This document shows, one piece after another, positions 4,609-15,691 of a stretch of 15,691 bases of DNA. Source of the stretch: a virus (Duplodnaviria > Heunggongvirae > Uroviricota > Caudoviricetes); IMG/VR virus record IMGVR_UViG_2778261058_000019, one strand, 5' to 3'. The notes under the pieces are model-generated. The model saw only the letters and a program-made list of their open reading frames with translations. It did not search any database and had not been told where the DNA came from. The position numbers and the translations under genes were made by a program. Every line of letters begins with the position of its first letter. The stretch's first letter is position 1.

Positions 4609-4827
4609 AGGCTTTTCCTGTATAAATGGCCGTATACAGTACACTAAATATGAAAACATTTCTCGTATTATTATTTTATATATGACTTTCTTTCAAAATA
4701 ATTACCCACATTTTTAATGTGTATGTTTTTTTAGCGCCGTTGAGAACAACGTGTGCTGTCAAAACTACCCCGTAGACTCCGATCTTTTCAAACATATTGC
4801 ACCATCCGTGTACATCGGGGTGAGGAT

Positions 4828-5043
4828 ATGAAATCAATGGATAAGTTAACAACAGGTGTTGCCTATGGCACATCGGCGGGTAATGCTGGTTTCTGGGCAT
4901 TGCAGTTACTCGATAAAGTAACTCCGTCACAGTGGGCTGCAATCGGTGTGCTGGGTAGCCTGGTTTTTGGCCTGCTGACGTATCTGACAAATCTTTATTT
5001 CAAGATTAAAGAAGACAGGCGTAAGGCTGCGAGAGGAGAGTAA
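4828..5043 (+). CDS. essQ: Class II pinholin, S21-like (71 aa), with dual-start motif MKSM
   Basis: [71 protein letters not shown] closely resembles the phage 21 pinholin as I recall it. Met1 and Met4 give the holin/antiholin dual start. A GGGGTGAGGA SD precedes; the ORF track starts 25 codons upstream at an ATG with no SD. Confidence 0.85.
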
Positions 5044-5047
5044 TCCA

Positions 5048-5355
5048 ATGACTCAAGACTATGAACTGGTTGTGAAAGGAGTCCGTAATTTTGAGAATAA
5101 AGTTACGGTAACTGTAGCCTTACAGGACAAAGAACGCTTTGACGGTGAAATTTTTGACCTGGATGTCGCCATGGACCGTGTTGAAGGAGCTGCGCTGGAG
5201 TTTTATGAGGCAGCAGCCAGAAGGAGCGTCCGGCAAGTCTTCCTGGAAGTAGCAGAAAAATTGTCAGAAAAAGTTGAGTCTTATCTGCAGCATCAGTACT
5301 CCTTTAAGATTGAAAATCCTGCCAATAAGCACGAGCGTCCTCATCATAAATATCT

Positions 5356-5359
<4 letters not shown>
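5048..5359 (+). CDS. ydfR: YdfR-like protein (103 aa) inserted between holin and endolysin
   Basis: ORF with strong SD GAGAGGAGAG (5031-5040); stop TGA 5357-5359 overlaps the endolysin ATG (ATGA). Function unknown. Confidence 0.7.
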
Positions 5360-6383
<1,024 letters not shown>

Positions 6384-6609
6384 GGTAATATTAAATCGGA
6401 ACATTTACATCGCGGAATGTAAAATTTAAATAAAAAGGACTCTTCCATGAGCCAAAATTCCTGAAATCTTAAGGGTAAGATAAAAGGTCTTAATCAGAAT
6501 GACACGTTTTATTAATAAATAAAGCTATTCTTTCATTGCTGTGTTTTTCTTTACAAAAGTAATCCTTGCTATGGGTGGTTAATCATGCGTTAATGGTGTT
6601 CTGGTTTGT

Positions 6610-7856: not shown

Positions 7857-7955
7857 ATATTTGAATGGTTCCGAATATCTAAATCACAATTGTTGATGGT
7901 TTTTATTAAACCAATGCAGTCCGGCTCAGGAGTGAGAGAAGCCGGACGTTATGGT

Positions 7956-8366
7956 TTAGCGTGGTAAGATCTGTGTAGTTTTCTGGATGCTTTCAGTAAA
8001 TAGTAATGAATTATCAAAGGTATAGTAATATCTTTTTTGTTCGTGGATATTTGTAACCCACCGAAAAACTCCTGCTTTAGCAAGGTTTCTTCTGTATTCC
8101 TGAAATGTGATCTCTCTGGATTTCAGCTTATTAGAGGTCGTTTCTATAAGATGCCTATCCTTTGAAAATTTGACAGACACAATGTTTTTTAGGCCCTTTA
8201 ATAACACTGTATTATCATTTTTTAATACAATATGAACATTCTCTGTGGCTAAATAGTAAATGTAATGTGAGACATTGTGACGTTTTAGCTCAGAATAAAA
8301 CCATTGATAGTTTAAATCGTTTCGAACTTTATCAAATATTTGTTTAAAAATGACTACCTGATCCAT
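7956..8366 (-). CDS. ydfO: YdfO-like protein (DUF1398-type, 136 aa)
   Basis: Minus-strand ORF. ATG at 8366-8364 is preceded by GGAAGG about 7 nt upstream and gives 136 aa (MDQVVIFKQ...); the track's 141-aa start at 8381 has no SD. A stem-loop at 7919-7947 lies just past the stop. Confidence 0.65.
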
Positions 8367-8423
8367 AGATAAACCTTCCATGTGATATGAGGGGGCGTAG
8401 TCTGCACGATTATCTAAATTGCT

Positions 8424-8657
8424 TCAATCTGGTCTGACCTGTTTTCTGAGCAATTCAGTAATGTCACTCTTTTCTTTGTTTGCTTCAGAAGAAACTCTTT
8501 TTTCTGAGCACAGTCTCCGGCGGCAGGCTTCAATGACCCAGGCTGAGAAATTCCCGGACCCTTTTTGCTCAAGAGCGATGTTAATTTGTTCAATCATTTG
8601 GTTAGGAAAGCGGATGTTGCGGGTTGTTGTTCTGCGGGTTCTGTTCTTCGTTGACAT
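8424..8657 (-). CDS. ynfO: YnfO-like small protein (77 aa), predicted ribbon-helix-helix DNA-binding fold
   Basis: Minus-strand ORF 57 nt upstream of ydfO on the same strand. Arg-rich N-terminus, then NIRFPNQMIEQINIALEQKG...NFSAWVIEACRRRL, which looks like a strand-helix-helix (Arc/CopG-like) pattern. Fold assignment is inference. Confidence 0.6.
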   Translation of the reverse strand: MSTKNRTRRTTTRNIRFPNQMIEQINIALEQKGSGNFSAWVIEACRRRLCSEKRVSSEANKEKSDITELLRKQVRPD

Positions 8658-8829
8658 GAGGTTGCCCCGTATTCAGTGTCGCTGATTTGTATTGTCTGAA
8701 GTTGTTTTTACGTTAAGTTGATGCAGATCAATTAATACGATACCTGCGTCATAATTGATTATTTGACGTGGTTTGATGGCCTCCACGCACGTTGTGATAT
8801 GTAGATGATAATCATTATCACTTTACGGG

Positions 8830-9040
8830 TCCTTTCCGGTGATCCGACAGGTTACGGGGCGGCGACCTCGCGGGTTTTCGCTATTTATGAAAATTTTCCG
8901 GTTTAAGGCATTTCCGTTCTTCTTCGTCGTAACTTAATGTTTTTATTTAAAATACCCCCTGAAAAGAAAGGAAACGACAGGTGCTGAAAACGAGCTTTTG
9001 GGCCTCTGTCGTTTCCTTTCTCTGTTTTTGGCCGTGGAAT
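8830..9040 (+). other. Lambda-type cos site (cosQ-cosN-cosB); 12-nt cohesive end GGGCGGCGACCT at 8857-8868
   Basis: Bases 8841-8880 read GATCCGACAGGTTACG|GGGCGGCGACCTCGCGGGTTTTCG, the fused right and left ends of phage lambda as I recall them. The roughly 170 bp upstream also resemble the lambda right end, and the downstream region leads into Nu1. Confidence 0.85.
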
Positions 9041-9045
9041 GAACA

Positions 9046-9591
9046 ATGGAAGTCAACAAAAAGCAGCTGGCTGACATTTTCGGTGCGAGTATCCGTACCA
9101 TTCAGAACTGGCAGGAACAGGGAATGCCCGTTCTGCGAGGCGGTGGCAAGGGTAATGAGGTGCTTTATGACTCTGCCGCCGTTATAAGATGGTATGCCGA
9201 AAGGGATGCTGAAATTGAGAACGAAAAGCTGCGCCGGGAAGTTGAAGAACTGCGGCAGGCCAGCGAGACAGATCTCCAGCCAGGGACTATTGAGTACGAA
9301 CGCCATCGACTTACGCGTGCGCAGGCCGACGCACAGGAGCTGAAAAATGCCAGAGACTCCGCTGAAGTGGTGGAAACCGCATTCTGTACTTTCGTGCTGT
9401 CGCGGATCGCAGGTGAAATTGCCAGTATTCTCGACGGGATCCCCCTGTCGGTGCAGCGGCGTTTTCCGGAACTGGAAAACCGACATGTTGATTTCCTGAA
9501 ACGGGATATCATCAAAGCCATGAACAAAGCAGCCGCGCTGGATGAACTGATACCGGGGTTGCTGAGTGAATATATCGAACAGTCAGGTTAA
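9046..9591 (+). CDS. nohQ: Terminase small subunit Nu1 homolog (181 aa), apparently full length
   Basis: MEVNKKQLADIFGASIRTIQNWQEQGMPVLRGGGKGNEVLYDSAAVIRWYAERDAEIEN... is essentially lambda gpNu1 with its N-terminal helix-turn-helix. The 3' end overlaps the start of the terminase A reading frame as in lambda. Symbol by analogy with Qin (nohA/nohQ). Confidence 0.85.
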   Translation: MEVNKKQLADIFGASIRTIQNWQEQGMPVLRGGGKGNEVLYDSAAVIRWYAERDAEIENEKLRREVEELRQASETDLQPGTIEYERHRLTRAQADAQELKNARDSAEVVETAFCTFVLSRIAGEIASILDGIPLSVQRRFPELENRHVDFLKRDIIKAMNKAAALDELIPGLLSEYIEQSG

Positions 9592-11242
9592 CAGGCTGCG
9601 GCATTTTGTCCGCGCCGGGCTTCGCTCACTGTTCAGGCCGGAGCCACAGACCGCCGTTGAATGGGCGGATGCTAATTACTATCTCCCGAAAGAATCCGCA
9701 TACCAGGAAGGGCGCTGGGAAACACTGCCCTTTCAGCGGGCCATCATGAATGCGATGGGCAGCGACTACATCCGTGAGGTGAATGTGGTGAAGTCTGCCC
9801 GTGTCGGTTATTCCAAAATGCTGCTGGGTGTTTATGCCTACTTTATAGAGCATAAGCAGCGCAACACCCTTATCTGGTTGCCGACGGATGGTGATGCCGA
9901 GAACTTTATGAAAACCCACGTTGAGCCGACCATCCGCGATATTCCGTCGCTGCTGGCGCTGGCTCCGTGGTATGGCAAAAAGCACCGGGATAACACGCTC
10001 ACTATGAAGCGTTTTTCCAATGGTCGTGGCTTCTGGTGCCTGGGCGGTAAAGCGGCAAAAAACTACCGTGAAAAGTCGGTGGATGTGGCGGGTTATGATG
10101 AACTTGCTGCCTTTGATGAGGATATTGAACAGGAAGGCTCTCCGACGTTCCTTGGCGACAAACGTATTGAAGGCTCGGTCTGGCCAAAGTCCATCCGTGG
10201 CTCCACGCCCAAAGTGAGAGGCACCTGCCAGATTGAGCGTGCAGCCAGTGAATCCCTGCATTTTATGCGTTTTCATGTTGCCTGCCCGCACTGCGGGGAG
10301 GAGCAGTATCTTAAATTTGGCGACAAAGAGACGCCGTTTGGCCTCAAATGGACGCCGGATGACCCCTCTAGCGTGTTTTATCTCTGCGAGCATAATGCCT
10401 GCGTCATCCGCCAGCAGGAGCTGGACTTTACTGATGCCCGTTATATCTGCGAAAAGACCGGGATCTGGACCCGTGATGGCATTCTCTGGTTTTCGTCATC
10501 CGGTGAAGAGATTGAGCCGCCGGACAGTGTGACCTTTCACATCTGGACGGCGTACAGCCCGTTCACCACCTGGGTGCAGATTGTCAAAGACTGGATGAAG
10601 ACGAAAGGGGATACGGGAAAACGTAAAACCTTCGTGAACACCACGCTCGGTGAGACATGGGAAGCGAAAATCGGCGAACGTCCGGATGCTGAGGTGATGG
10701 CGGAGCGGAAAGAGCATTATTCAGCGCCCGTTCCTGACCGTGTGGCTTACCTGACCGCCGGTATCGACTCCCAGCTGGACCGCTACGAAATGCGCGTATG
10801 GGGATGGGGGCCGGGTGAGGAAAGCTGGCTGATTGACCGGCAGATTATTATGGGTCGCCACGACGATGAACAGACGCTGCTGCGTGTGGATGAGGCCATC
10901 AATAAAACCTATACCCGCCGGAATGGTGCAGAAATGTCGGTATCCCGTATCTGCTGGGATACTGGCGGGATTGACCCGACCATTGTGTATGAACGCTCGA
11001 AAAAACATGGGCTGTTCCGGGTGATCCCCATTAAAGGGGCATCCGTCTACGGAAAGCCGGTGGCCAGCATGCCACGTAAGCGAAACAAAAACGGGGTTTA
11101 CCTTACCGAAATCGGTACGGATACCGCGAAAGAGCAGATTTATAACCGCTTCACACTGACGCCGGAAGGGGATGAACCGCTTCCCGGTGCCGTTCACTTC
11201 CCGAATACCCGAAACTTGCAGTTGCTTATCCGTCAGGCGTGA
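9566..11242 (+). pseudogene. Terminase large subunit (gpA-like), 3'-truncated by a deletion; 558 codons with a short out-of-frame tail
   Basis: GTG 9566 starts MNISNSQVNRLRHFVRAGLRSLFRPEPQTAVEWADANYYLPKES..., which follows lambda gpA (641 aa) as I recall it up to ...LPGAVHFPN near 11207. The frame then reads [11 protein letters not shown] and stops at 11240-11242, so the C-terminal ~90 residues of gpA are missing. Confidence 0.85.
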
Positions 11243-11808
11243 TCCCTGATATGCGTGGCTGGACGATTAAGGGCAAGCCCGCCAGTGGTCGGGCCGTATT
11301 ATCTCAGGAACAGGACGGCATTAAATCGCACACCCACAGCGCCAGCGCATCCAGTACGGATTTGGGGACGAAAACCACATCGTCGTTTGATTACGGAACC
11401 AAATCCACGAATAACACCGGGGCGCATACCCATAGTATTAGCGGGACCGCAAATAGTGCCGGTGCGCACCAACACAAGAGTTCCGGTGCATTTGGTGGCA
11501 CGAACACGAGCATTTTCCCTAATGGTTATACCGCGATTTCAAATCTAAGCGCGGGGATTATGAGCACAACAAGCGGTAGTGGCCAGATTCGTAATGCAGG
11601 GAAGACATCATCAGATGGTGCTCATACCCACTCGCTGTCCGGCACTGCTGCAAGCGCAGGCGCACATGCACATACTGTCGGTATTGGTGCTCATACGCAC
11701 TCCGTTGCGATTGGTTCACATGGACACACCATCACCGTTAACGCTGCTGGTAACGCGGAAAACACCGTCAAAAACATCGCATTTAACTATATTGTGAGGC
11801 TTGCATAA
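11239..11808 (+). CDS. stfQ: Side tail fiber protein (Stf-like), C-terminal fragment (up to 189 aa) with GAHTHS-type repeats
   Basis: This frame is open from 11176 and already reads [28 protein letters not shown]... across the junction. The first possible starts are GTG 11239 and ATG 11251, with no clear SD. His/Gly/Ala-rich repeats (GAHTHS, GAHQH, GAHAH) are typical of lambda-type side tail fiber C-termini. May be an unexpressed remnant. Confidence 0.6.
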
Positions 11809-12383
11809 TGGCATTCAGAATGAGTGAACAACCACGGACCATAAAAATTTATAATCTGCTGGCCGGAACTAATGAATTTATTGGTGAAGGTGATGCATAT
11901 ATTCCGCCTCATACAGGTCTGCCAGCAAACAGTACCGATATTGCACCGCCAGATATTCCGGCTGGCTTCGTGGCTGTTTTCAACAGTGATGAGTCATCGT
12001 GGCATCTCGTTGAAGATCATCGGGGTAAAACGGTTTATGACGTGGCTTCCGGCGACGCGTTATTTATTTCTGAACTCGGTCCGTTACCGGAAAATGTTAC
12101 CTGGTTATCGCCGGAAGGGGAGTTTCAGAAGTGGAACGGCACAGTCTGGGTGAAGGATACGGAAGCAGAAAAACTGTTCCGGATCCGGGAGGCGGAAGAA
12201 ACAAAAAACAACCTGATGCAGGTAGCCAGTGAGCATATTGCGCCGCTTCAGGATGTTGCAGATCTGGAAATTGCAACGGAGGAAGAAATCTCGTTGCTGG
12301 AAGCATGGAAAAAGTATCGGGTATTGCTGAACCGTGTTGATACGTCAACTGCACAGGATATTGAATGGCCAGCACTGCCGTAG
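11808..12383 (+). CDS. tfaQ: Tail fiber assembly protein (lambda Tfa-like, 191 aa)
   Basis: ATG overlaps the stf stop (TAATG). [54 protein letters not shown]... matches lambda Tfa as I recall it. Confidence 0.85.
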
Positions 12384-12480
12384 GGTAAAACATATAAATT
12401 CTATAATTAGATGTATCTTTCCATTTACGGCAAGGAAGGGGGCTTGGAAGACGTAAAGCATCTCACACCGAGATTATTTT

Positions 12481-13071
12481 TTATATGTCAGGTGTCTGAA
12501 GTTTTGCTTTGGCTCTTAAAATGGTTTGCCGCGAGGTTTTGAATTCCCGGGCAATGGCACTTATACTTACACCTGACTTAATTCGTTCGAATACCGCCTG
12601 TTTCTGTTCTTCATTTAACACAGGTGGTCGACCAAAACGTTTCCCTGCGCCGCGGGCTCTTACTATCCCGGAATGAGTGCGTTCAAGTAAAAGGTCTCGT
12701 TCAAATTCAGCGACTGCTGAAATTACTTGCATCATCATTTTTCCTGTTGGACTGGTCAGGTCAATGCCCCCCAATGCTAAGCAATGCACTCTGATACCTG
12801 TTTCGGTCAGTTGTTCCACTGTTTTCCTGATATCCATTGCATTACAACCAAGGCGATCCAGTTTTGTCACAATCAATTGATCACCACATTTCAGGCGAGC
12901 AAGCAACCGGTTAAAACCAGGACGCTCACTGGTTGCTGCTGAGCCGCTAATGTGTTCTTCGATTATTTGCTGAGGTTTGATTTTAAAACCTGCACTTTCG
13001 ATTTCCCGGCGTTGATTTTCGGTGGTCTGATCCAGCGTTGATATCCGACAGTAAGCAAAAATTTGAGACAT
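12481..13071 (-). CDS. pinQ: Serine recombinase (resolvase/invertase family, 196 aa)
   Basis: Minus-strand [23 protein letters not shown]... has the N-terminal catalytic serine motif (YCRISTLDQ), [14 protein letters not shown] and a C-terminal HTH. Position beside stf/tfa is that of Pin-type invertases. Confidence 0.8.
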
Positions 13072-13387
13072 AGTGAGACTCTATACGAAATTGGTGTTCA
13101 TATCATAATGCATCTCAGAAAATAATTATGATTATTTTTGTGCATATTTGTATGTACACGTTCGAAAATAAACGAATGCGTATGCAACCCCGTAATTTTG
13201 GTGAGACCCAAAATCGATTTTGTGAAAAATGGCTTTAACTCGGTTTGTTTTTCGAGTTCCGGGCGGACTCAAGGAAGAAGAATAGTGTTGCGTGTTATTT
13301 TAACCAGATTTCAAGTTGTTTGGTCGTGGAAAAGTGGAGCAAAATGTTGTTAAAGTGGAAAAATGATAAAAAAGTAAGTTTATTATA

Positions 13388-13621
13388 TTACATTTTACCA
13401 TTTAAATTTTGGTTGTCTTTAAGAACTGATATCGCTGTTTGTAATAATTCTTTGTTATCCAGCCATGATTTTTTCTTTATGTTTCCTTCAATGTAATCAA
13501 GCAATGTTCTGGTATTGATAGGTCTTCCCTGTTTTGCTACTTCCACTACAGCATCCCCTAGGATAATTCTTACTTCAGGAAGCTGCGCAGGGAACCACTT
13601 TAGGGTGTCTTTTGATTTCAT
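13388..13621 (-). CDS. ydfK: YdfK-like small protein (77 aa)
   Basis: Minus-strand ORF; the 77-aa form starts MKSKDTLKWFPAQLPEV... at ATG 13621-13619, and the track's 88-aa form starts 11 codons upstream. Lies between pinQ and the prophage/host boundary as in Qin and Rac (ynaE paralog). Confidence 0.65.
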   Translation of the reverse strand: MKSKDTLKWFPAQLPEVRIILGDAVVEVAKQGRPINTRTLLDYIEGNIKKKSWLDNKELLQTAISVLKDNQNLNGKM

Positions 13622-14407
13622 GAAGATATTCCTTAAAATATTATTGATTTTCATTGCGATATTGTATGTCTGATTCAGGATATGTTGACTTATACATCGG
13701 TTTTGTCTGGGTTATTGGATATGCCAATCCCTAATTTTATTAGGGCATGACTAAAAATGCTGAATATGATAAGGAGAGATGTGATTATCAGTATGCTGTT
13801 CATATAGCCTCGAATTAGTAATGTGTTATATATGATATAGTTGACAATTTTTATCTTGGGTGTTCTTAAAGTTCGTAGATAAACATTGTCGTTTCAGGTA
13901 TACAGGAATGCTAACAGGTGGCAGCAAAAATCAGGCGGTTTATGGCGCAAGCTGAAGCGGCAACTGCAAACTATCTTATGTAGAGACTCTACACGGATTG
14001 GGTTTAAAAGTATACATAGATAACAGTTTTTATCTGAAAAAGAAAAATATCAAGGTGATATAGCCTATATGCCTTTGATGCGGAGGAATGAATGTGATGG
14101 GAGTGATGTATCTGAATAGTTGAAAAACCGCAGACACGCCTTATGCAAGAACGTGCTGCGATTGGCTGGTAAATTTTTCGATAGTGTGAGTATTGAATGA
14201 TTTCCAGCCGTTCTTGATTTTACGCATAAATCCATGAAAAAACTACTTATCTGTTGGGGAGTTTTTTTGGGGCATATATGGGACAGAAATAGGCCCCAGA
14301 TAGACACTGAGATCGAACTTAGGATGCTTTTTAAAAAAATGCAACTATCTGAAAAAACCTAGAAAACGCCAAGGAAACCACAGGATGGGAAAAAACACCT
14401 GTGAATT

Positions 14408-15691
14408 ATGGATTTCCAGTTATATTCGCTCGGCGCAGCGTTAGTGTTTCATGAAATATTTTTTCCTGAATCATCAACGGCAATGGCGTTAATTCTGGCA
14501 ATGGGAACCTACGGTGCAGGTTATGTGGCGCGTATTGTCGGAGCATTTATTTTCGGCAAAATGGGCGACAGAATAGGGCGTAAAAAAGTGCTCTTTATTA
14601 CCATCACCATGATGGGGATCTGTACCACCTTAATTGGTGTGTTACCGACCTATGCACAGATTGGTGTTTTTGCACCCATCTTGCTGGTGACGTTGCGTAT
14701 TATTCAGGGGTTGGGTGCAGGTGCGGAAATTTCCGGTGCCGGTACGATGCTGGCGGAATATGCGCCAAAAGGTAAGCGCGGAATTATCTCCTCATTTGTG
14801 GCTATGGGAACTAACTGCGGAACCTTGAGCGCAACGGCAATCTGGGCCTTTATGTTCTTCATTCTCAGTAAAGAGGAACTGCTGGCGTGGGGATGGCGTA
14901 TACCGTTCCTGGCGAGCGTTGTCGTGATGGTCTTTGCTATCTGGTTGCGTATGAATCTGAAAGAAAGCCCGGTCTTTGAGAAGGTTAACGACAGTAACCA
15001 ACCGACAGCAAAACCTGCACCTGCTGGTAGCATGTTCCAGAGCAAATCCTTCTGGCTGGCAACAGGGCTGCGTTTTGGTCAGGCGGGTAACTCCGGGTTA
15101 ATTCAGACTTTCCTTGCAGGCTATTTAGTGCAGACGTTATTGTTTAACAAAGCAATTCCAACAGATGCATTGATGATCAGTTCGATTCTCGGCTTTATGA
15201 CCATTCCGTTCCTTGGTTGGTTATCCGATAAAATTGGTCGCCGGATCCCGTATATTATTATGAATACCTCCGCGATTGTGCTGGCATGGCCAATGCTTTC
15301 TATCATTGTAGATAAAAGCTATGCCCCGAGCACCATTATGGTTGCACTGATTGTGATTCATAACTGTGCGGTGCTGGGATTATTTGCTCTGGAAAACATT
15401 ACCATGGCAGAAATGTTCGGCTGTAAAAACCGCTTTACCCGGATGGCTATTTCTAAAGAAATTGGTGGTCTTATCGCTTCCGGTTTTGGTCCTATCCTGG
15501 CGGGTATTTTCTGCACCATGACGGAATCCTGGTATCCGATCGCCATTATGATCATGGCATATTCAGTAATTGGTTTAATCTCTGCGCTGAAAATGCCAGA
15601 GGTGAAAGACCGTGATTTAAGTGCGCTGGAAGACGCTGCGGAAGATCAACCGCGTGTTGTAAGAGCTGCGCAACCTTCCAGAAGTCTGTAA
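14408..15691 (+). CDS. ydfJ: MFS transporter (metabolite:H+ symporter type), N-terminally truncated at the prophage/host junction (427 codons)
   Basis: ORF starts MDFQLYSLGAALVFHEIFFPESS... and carries the MFS signature GKMGDRIGRKKVLF. It begins at the conserved DFxLYG motif, which in full-length homologs follows the first transmembrane helix, so about 25-30 N-terminal residues are missing. An in-frame stop sits two codons upstream of the ATG. Confidence 0.75.
   Translation: MDFQLYSLGAALVFHEIFFPESSTAMALILAMGTYGAGYVARIVGAFIFGKMGDRIGRKKVLFITITMMGICTTLIGVLPTYAQIGVFAPILLVTLRIIQGLGAGAEISGAGTMLAEYAPKGKRGIISSFVAMGTNCGTLSATAIWAFMFFILSKEELLAWGWRIPFLASVVVMVFAIWLRMNLKESPVFEKVNDSNQPTAKPAPAGSMFQSKSFWLATGLRFGQAGNSGLIQTFLAGYLVQTLLFNKAIPTDALMISSILGFMTIPFLGWLSDKIGRRIPYIIMNTSAIVLAWPMLSIIVDKSYAPSTIMVALIVIHNCAVLGLFALENITMAEMFGCKNRFTRMAISKEIGGLIASGFGPILAGIFCTMTESWYPIAIMIMAYSVIGLISALKMPEVKDRDLSALEDAAEDQPRVVRAAQPSRSL

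Follow-up and report, generated by a model that had tools for sequence, protein, structure and literature searches.

A deletion junction between a terminase gene and a tail-fibre gene in a Qin prophage of Escherichia coli

The stretch of DNA analysed here (the window, 15,691 nucleotides; IMG/VR record IMGVR_UViG_2778261058_000019) carries a gene for the large terminase subunit of a lambda-like phage that changes, within a few bases, into the 3' end of a side tail fibre gene. The locus raises the question of whether this junction is real, how it was formed, and whether the truncated genes on its two sides still serve any purpose.

The locus and its junction

The window, which is the start of the draft contig NLNZ01000029.1 (GCA_002229985.1), is assigned to the late half of the cryptic prophage Qin of E. 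coli, inserted in ydfJ, because its insertion site and gene order agree with the annotated Qin of K-12 and other strains. Over 15.5 kb it was collinear with annotated Qin copies from many strains and from K-12 MG1655, at 99.3–99.8% identity. The gene order was hokD, rem, ydfU, ydfT (a Q-type antiterminator), cspF, cspB, essQ, ydfR, rrrQ, rzpQ, cspI, ynfN, gnsB, ydfO, ynfO and nohA, followed by the A-like ORF, a tail-fibre fragment, tfaQ, pinQ, ydfK, ynfT and a 5'-truncated ydfJ (14408–15691), which marks the insertion site of Qin. At the left end, bases 1–156 were the right end of an IS3-family element, with the 3' end of its transposase gene; the element abuts hokD after its sixth codon, so this toxin gene is interrupted (hokD from 157). 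The element is visible in part, since the window begins at the end of the draft contig, and IS3-family elements were found near hokD in other strains as well, at different spacings.

The packaging genes lie in the middle of the window. The cosN cohesive end GGGCGGCGACCT (8857–8868, plus strand), read directly, is intact and equals lambda nt 1–12, and the alignment with lambda begins at lambda nt 1. It is followed by nohA (9046–9591, plus strand), named as in syntenic strains, which encodes an intact Nu1-type small terminase subunit of 181 aa covering 164/164 positions of the Pfam Phage_Nu1 profile (E = 2e-101). A complete packaging recognition site, with intact cosN and full-length nohA, therefore adjoins a broken large subunit in this defective prophage. 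The truncated gene, A' (9566–11242, plus strand), has 558 codons, comprising 547 native residues and an 11-residue out-of-frame tail.

The junction was placed to the base by alignment. Window positions 8857–11210 were 98.0% identical to lambda 1–2355, and positions 7858–11211 were 99.6% identical to the phage PhiR42_1; A-type sequence extends to 11207, and all A-type matches in a search of a phage collection stopped at 11211. On the other side, stf-type sequence begins at 11205, with 11205–15691 being 99.87% identical to the Qin copy of strain MLI105, which has a full-length stf, and the stf part being 97.9% identical to the stf of PhiR42_1. Chance resemblance is excluded, because each arm matches its parent at 98–99.9% over kilobases and one gives way abruptly to the other; the A–stf deletion junction is real. 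Both arms run straight into parental sequence with no inserted bases, so that A nt 1642 is joined to stf nt 2472. When the junction letters were aligned three ways (A parent TTCCCGAATAACCCGGAT, stf parent TCTGCATACCCGAAACTTGC, window TTCCCGAATACCCGAAACTTGC), the crossover fell within an ATA common to both parents (11205–11207, plus strand). If one bulged A is allowed in the A parent, the parents share ATAACCCG/ATACCCG, i.e. ATA(A)CCCG, and the homology reaches 11211. The sequence-only reading had followed A to about 11207 and stf from there, had placed an out-of-frame joint at about codon 548, and had proposed microhomology with ATACCCG. All of its positions and sequences proved correct, and the alignments to lambda, PhiR42_1 and MLI105 agree with it and narrow its breakpoint to the three bases of ATA.

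Codon 547 (AAT, Asn) is the final native codon of A, and codon 548 is ACC where the parent has AAC. Codons 548–558 encode the 11 foreign residues expected earlier, which are stf DNA read in the wrong frame and end in a TGA stop at 11240–11242 (tail and stop, 11207–11242, plus strand). The ORF is not a naturally shorter terminase; up to the break it is the full-length functional A save one synonymous change, and the Pfam match to its nuclease domain breaks off at profile position 236/294. Nor does the stf frame continue upstream, as it is shut by a stop at 11173–11175 and is open from 11176.

Formation and extent of the deletion

Deletions at this place were found in other Qin copies. At least seven other junctions, that of K-12 included, were present in copies with nearly identical flanks (98–100%), which makes at least eight with that of the window, and seven strains (K-12, W5-6, WP2-S18, ETEC4070, MLI105, MB19 and JX21CE8) each carried a junction of their own. 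In K-12, A nt 9 is joined to stf nt 2120 with an overlap of 2 bp; this junction was counted in up to 372 complete genomes, where the count takes a junction probe covered over at least 80% and includes some matches in two pieces, which may represent other variants of the junction. The W5-6 junction (A nt 1050 to stf nt 2312, in frame, with the 8-bp overlap GGGATACG) was found in 48 complete genomes. In WP2-S18, A nt 1558 is joined to stf nt 2165 with an overlap of 2 bp, and in ETEC4070 about A nt 1482 is joined to about stf nt 1252. Furthermore, MLI105 has A nt 1909 joined with a 1-bp overlap to a lom remnant, which is followed by the full-length stf (1 complete genome); MB19 has an intact A and then a W fragment joined to stf fragments; and JX21CE8 has A, W and part of B joined to an integrase gene and IS903B, followed by an stf remnant. 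In the records compared, this allelic series of independent A/W/B-to-stf deletions, with microhomology of 1 to 8 bp, was located at 6423–6424 in L001, 5841–5848 in L002, 11519 in L003, about 4841 in L004 and about 10890 in L011, as well as in L009 and L012. The copies differ by few point changes and have at least eight junctions at one site, so the junction alleles could serve as lineage markers. A clustering of the stf-side breakpoints was considered when four junctions seemed to lie within 350 bp, and was abandoned once breakpoints further away had been placed in ETEC4070 (about nt 1252) and JX21CE8 (about nt 1858).

A short direct repeat was present at both parental breakpoints, and one copy was kept in the window. 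Exact microhomology of at least 3 bases occurred in 5.4% of random breakpoint pairs drawn from A and stf of PhiR42_1 (P = 0.054), so that the 3 exact bases exceed chance only marginally. The pattern of 3 + 4 bases across a one-base bulge occurred in 0.4% of random pairs (P = 0.004), by a measure picked after the data had been seen. Taken together, the five measured Qin junctions had 16 bases of microhomology (3, 2, 8, 2 and 1; P = 7.5e-5). Judged from their sequences, the Qin copies have undergone recurrent deletional decay at short homologies, and the microhomology at the present junction fits a RecA-independent short-homology deletion. No IS end was found at the junction, the sole IS sequence in the window being bases 1–156, and an IS-mediated deletion was rejected on this ground.

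The feature is best explained as an inert scar of Qin prophage decay via illegitimate short-homology deletion, to which a probability of about 0.88 was given. By this mechanism, the ATA(A)CCCG of A probably mispaired by slippage with the ATACCCG of stf, and an illegitimate deletion would then have joined A nt 1642 to stf nt 2472 with the loss of all DNA between. The resulting prophage would be unable to make virions or to package DNA. It is left with cos, nohA, an A' with whole ATPase, cut nuclease and no C-terminal tail, a putatively promoterless stf tip lacking its start, and intact tfaQ and pinQ.

The extent of the loss was measured against intact phages. The missing stretch was 18,975 bp in lambda coordinates (2350 to 21325) and 19,858 bp in PhiR42_1, the closest intact relative, so the earlier estimate of about 17–18 kb was 1–2 kb short. 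The order of genes in PhiR42_1 is Nu1, A, W, B, C/Nu3, D, E, FI, FII, Z, U, V, G, T, H, M, L, K, I, J, lom, stf and tfa, and then a Pin-type recombinase on the opposite strand. The window has lost the 3' end of A together with W, B, C, Nu3, D, E, FI, FII, Z, U, V, G, T, H, M, L, K, I, J and lom, and stf codons 1–823 are lost too.

The sequence-only reading had also held that a single deletion took the whole morphogenetic region. The region is indeed gone, and its removal fits both one step of about 19–20 kb and an MLI105-like history with a 3,048-bp second step. The loss may thus have occurred in one step of about 19–20 kb from an intact PhiR42_1-like prophage, or the present junction may be the last of several deletions, for example one of 3,048 bp from an MLI105-like copy. 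In the two-step version, which is possible and on balance rather unlikely, an older A–lom junction as in MLI105 would have been followed by a 3,048-bp deletion taking out A from codon 548 on, what was left of lom, and stf codons 1–823. It is a sub-case of the explanation preferred here and competes with the single deletion only. The structure of MLI105, with A (nt 1–1909), 'lom, full stf, tfaQ and pinQ, speaks for it, as its flanks are 99.8% identical to the window and the missing interval of the window falls wholly within it. However, the A–lom junction of MLI105 was present in 1/5,426 complete genomes, and the left arm of the window has 12 mismatches with MLI105, against 1 in 4,771 bases with K-12. 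Moreover, fragments of W or B survive in other Qin copies, so the A–lom junction is not ancestral to all of them. MLI105 was accordingly not established as a common ancestral intermediate, given a junction found in just one genome and flanks less close than those of K-12.

Remains of the terminase and tail-fibre genes

The A' part of the window was 98% identical to lambda A. Over codons 1–547 a single synonymous change separates it from A of the intact phage PhiR42_1; this indicates that the deletion is young and the remnant still undamaged. The ATPase domain is complete (Pfam PF05876), with residues 47–285 matching profile positions 3–237/247 at E = 1.6e-50. The endonuclease domain is incomplete; its match to Pfam PF20454 stops at residue 548 and profile position 236/294, whereas the intact A reaches 286/294 of the same profile at residue 600. 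The last fifth of the nuclease domain is gone, and A residues 548–641 are replaced by the 11 foreign residues. The contact of gpA with the portal or prohead is located at the gpA C-terminus. It had been proposed from the sequence that the truncated gpA lacks this portal-contact segment; the absence of residues 548–641 bears this out, but the loss is larger, as part of the endonuclease domain has gone too. Binding of gpA to the connector has been documented (Yeo and Feiss 1995, as cited in PMC2366019). A sequence search of the PDB gave no solved gpA structure on which the lost residues could be mapped. The 558-codon ORF is best annotated as a terminase pseudogene.

On the other side of the junction, the stf remnant (11205–11808, plus strand) comprises the last 201/1,024 codons, which make up the receptor-binding tip. 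The N-terminal tail-attachment domain, the shaft and the native start codon are absent, and the DNA upstream is A sequence. A Phage_fiber repeat was found in the remnant (Pfam), and the stretch 11320–11740 is full of repeats of the G-A-H-T-H-S type (His-x-His). The tip of T4 gp37 (PDB 2XGF) is an iron-binding needle. Residues 10–210 of the frame 11176–11808 matched this structure at E = 4e-63. Possible restarts in the stf frame are a GTG at 11239, which overlaps the A' stop as GTGA, and an ATG at 11251, where gene callers begin the ORF of the fragment. The GTGA overlap of the A' stop with the stf-frame GTG could permit coupled re-initiation. A search for promoters or terminators that the junction might have created gave nothing above shuffled controls. 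The resulting ORF of 185–189 codons is best annotated as a tail-fibre fragment.

The downstream genes tfaQ and pinQ are intact. The first (11808–12383, plus strand) encodes a tail fibre assembly protein, identified by Pfam Caudo_TAP (E = 4e-42) and by annotation in other strains. The second (12481–13071, minus strand) encodes a Pin/Gin-type serine recombinase with the Pfam Resolvase and HTH_7 domains, and is arranged in the same way in PhiR42_1, where the pin gene (24479–25069 of record L014) also lies tail to tail with tfa. Among the Qin copies examined, tfaQ was kept in 8/8 (divergent in MB19) and pinQ in 7/8 (absent from MB19); in MB19 the stf tip is left as short fragments only.

The intact parts allow the thought that a product has been domesticated, either A' in combination with NohA and cos or TfaQ together with the Stf tip, and kept for the benefit of the host. 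The host might gain, for example, interference with the packaging of superinfecting lambdoid phages, or a reservoir from which tail fibres could be exchanged. In favour of this, A' has an intact ATPase domain and N-terminus, nohA and cosN are intact too, tfaQ and pinQ are retained at the frequencies just given, and lambda recombines with the stf–tfa of Qin at about 2e-6 (PMC3945230). However, the allele is very rare (0/5,426 complete genomes), the junction position and reading frame vary by strain, as neutral decay predicts, and the near-identity to a live phage reflects youth and not constraint. Domestication was accordingly judged very unlikely.

A related thought, held to be slightly more improbable still, is that repeated independent A-to-stf deletions were selected because they disable packaging and morphogenesis while keeping cos–nohA–A' and Stf tip–tfaQ–pinQ. 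If this were true, A', with its intact ATPase and NohA-binding end and without the full nuclease or portal tail, could act as a poison on the terminase of lambda-like phages that superinfect the cell, and the Stf tip cassette could be a reservoir for recombination. Apart from any such selection, lambda has been shown to recombine with the stf–tfa region of Qin and with the cos–terminase region of DLP12 in K-12 (PMC3945230). On this basis, the arms retained in the window, 2.35 kb at 98% to the left end of lambda and 0.7 kb at 94% over the stf 3' end and tfaQ, are potential exchange substrates for infecting lambda-like phages.

Occurrence of the junction and comparison with known systems

The junction allele is real but rare and limited to a small group of isolates. 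A 136-base junction probe was covered in 0/5,426 complete E. coli genomes, and the exact junction 34-mer was absent from 185,579 species-representative genomes. The strain comparison gave the same junction in three draft or read assemblies (GCA_002229985.1, GCA_002229605.1 and SRR3989737): the exact 558-aa product was found on three contigs, two of them in NCBI drafts and the third in a Logan assembly made independently from SRR3989737, with flanks 100% identical to the window. That a draft assembly falsely joined two repeated prophage sequences is hardly credible: the window does start a draft contig (NLNZ01000029.1), and E. coli genomes carry several copies each of A and stf, but the identical junction recurs in the independent assembly, both flanks are fully syntenic with Qin, and the parents share just 3–7 bases, far under any assembler word size, so that a mis-join with at most 7 common bases is implausible.

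A site-specific exchange made by the Pin-type invertase PinQ, with a crossover site in stf (the ATACCCGAAAC region) and a pseudo-site in A as partners, is equally hard to credit. It is true that pinQ lies 670 bp downstream of the junction, that invertases of its family act within tail-fibre genes, and that invertase-driven exchange of stf genes has been noted (PMC3945230); however, the junctions of other strains sit elsewhere on both sides, the Hin/Gin/Pin crossover consensus had no match in the window at up to 3 mismatches, and the e14 pix core TTCTCCCAAACCAA(G/C)GTTT, taken from the K-12 sequence, had none in the window, the MLI105 Qin or PhiR42_1. Pin-mediated recombination is thus largely refuted by the lack of a pix-like site in these three. 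As to a target site for pinQ, e14-pix-like sites were absent from the window, the MLI105 Qin and positions 22500–48668 of the PhiR42_1 record.

The proposed inert scar of a short-homology deletion has several known counterparts, from an intact phage to other decayed prophages. A literature search on Qin, stfQ and nohA gave papers on other subjects only. The intact lambda-like phage PhiR42_1 (PV340562.1) has the same module order, Nu1–A...J–lom–stf–tfa–pin, and an stf/tfa/pin arm about 98% identical to the window. Unlike the window, it still has all 19,858 bp that separate the two breakpoints, and its A and Stf are 641 and 1,025 aa long.

The Qin of K-12 (nohA–stfQ–tfaQ–pinQ, b1548–b1545) shares with the window the truncated-ydfJ site, the gene order, the loss of the morphogenetic genes and the joining of the terminase region to the stf 3' end, but has 352 more stf bases and almost no A. 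Each allele thus retains DNA missing in the other, which indicates that the two deletions are independent and arose from a more complete ancestor. In addition, the K-12 deletion begins 9 nt into A, within the overlap of nohA and A (nohA at 4799–5368 of record L004), so that the K-12 NohA has 189 aa instead of 181 and an altered C-terminus. Judged by coordinates, the start of K-12 stfQ appears to be the start codon of A.

The W5-6 or E. coli C-type Qin also carries an A–stf deletion formed at a short homology at the same locus. In W5-6 (4799–6604 of record L002) and 47 other complete genomes, however, the result is an in-frame ORF of 601 aa, consisting of A residues 1–350 and the last 251 residues of Stf, which is annotated as a terminase large subunit family protein. 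Outside Qin, ymfN (oweE'/aaaE') in the e14 element of K-12 likewise arose by a deletion that attached part of a terminase large-subunit gene to a phage gene unrelated to it, and its annotation is that of a chimera or pseudogene; it differs in the prophage, the fusion partner and the breakpoints.

The locus illustrates the fast loss of structural genes from a defective prophage, and its relevance is mostly for annotation. Deletional decay of lambdoid prophages and chimeras of terminase remnants, such as stfQ and nohA in Qin and ymfN/aaaE in e14, are already familiar. Compared with these, the junction of the window is ordinary, being a new and rare allele of a well-known type of scar.
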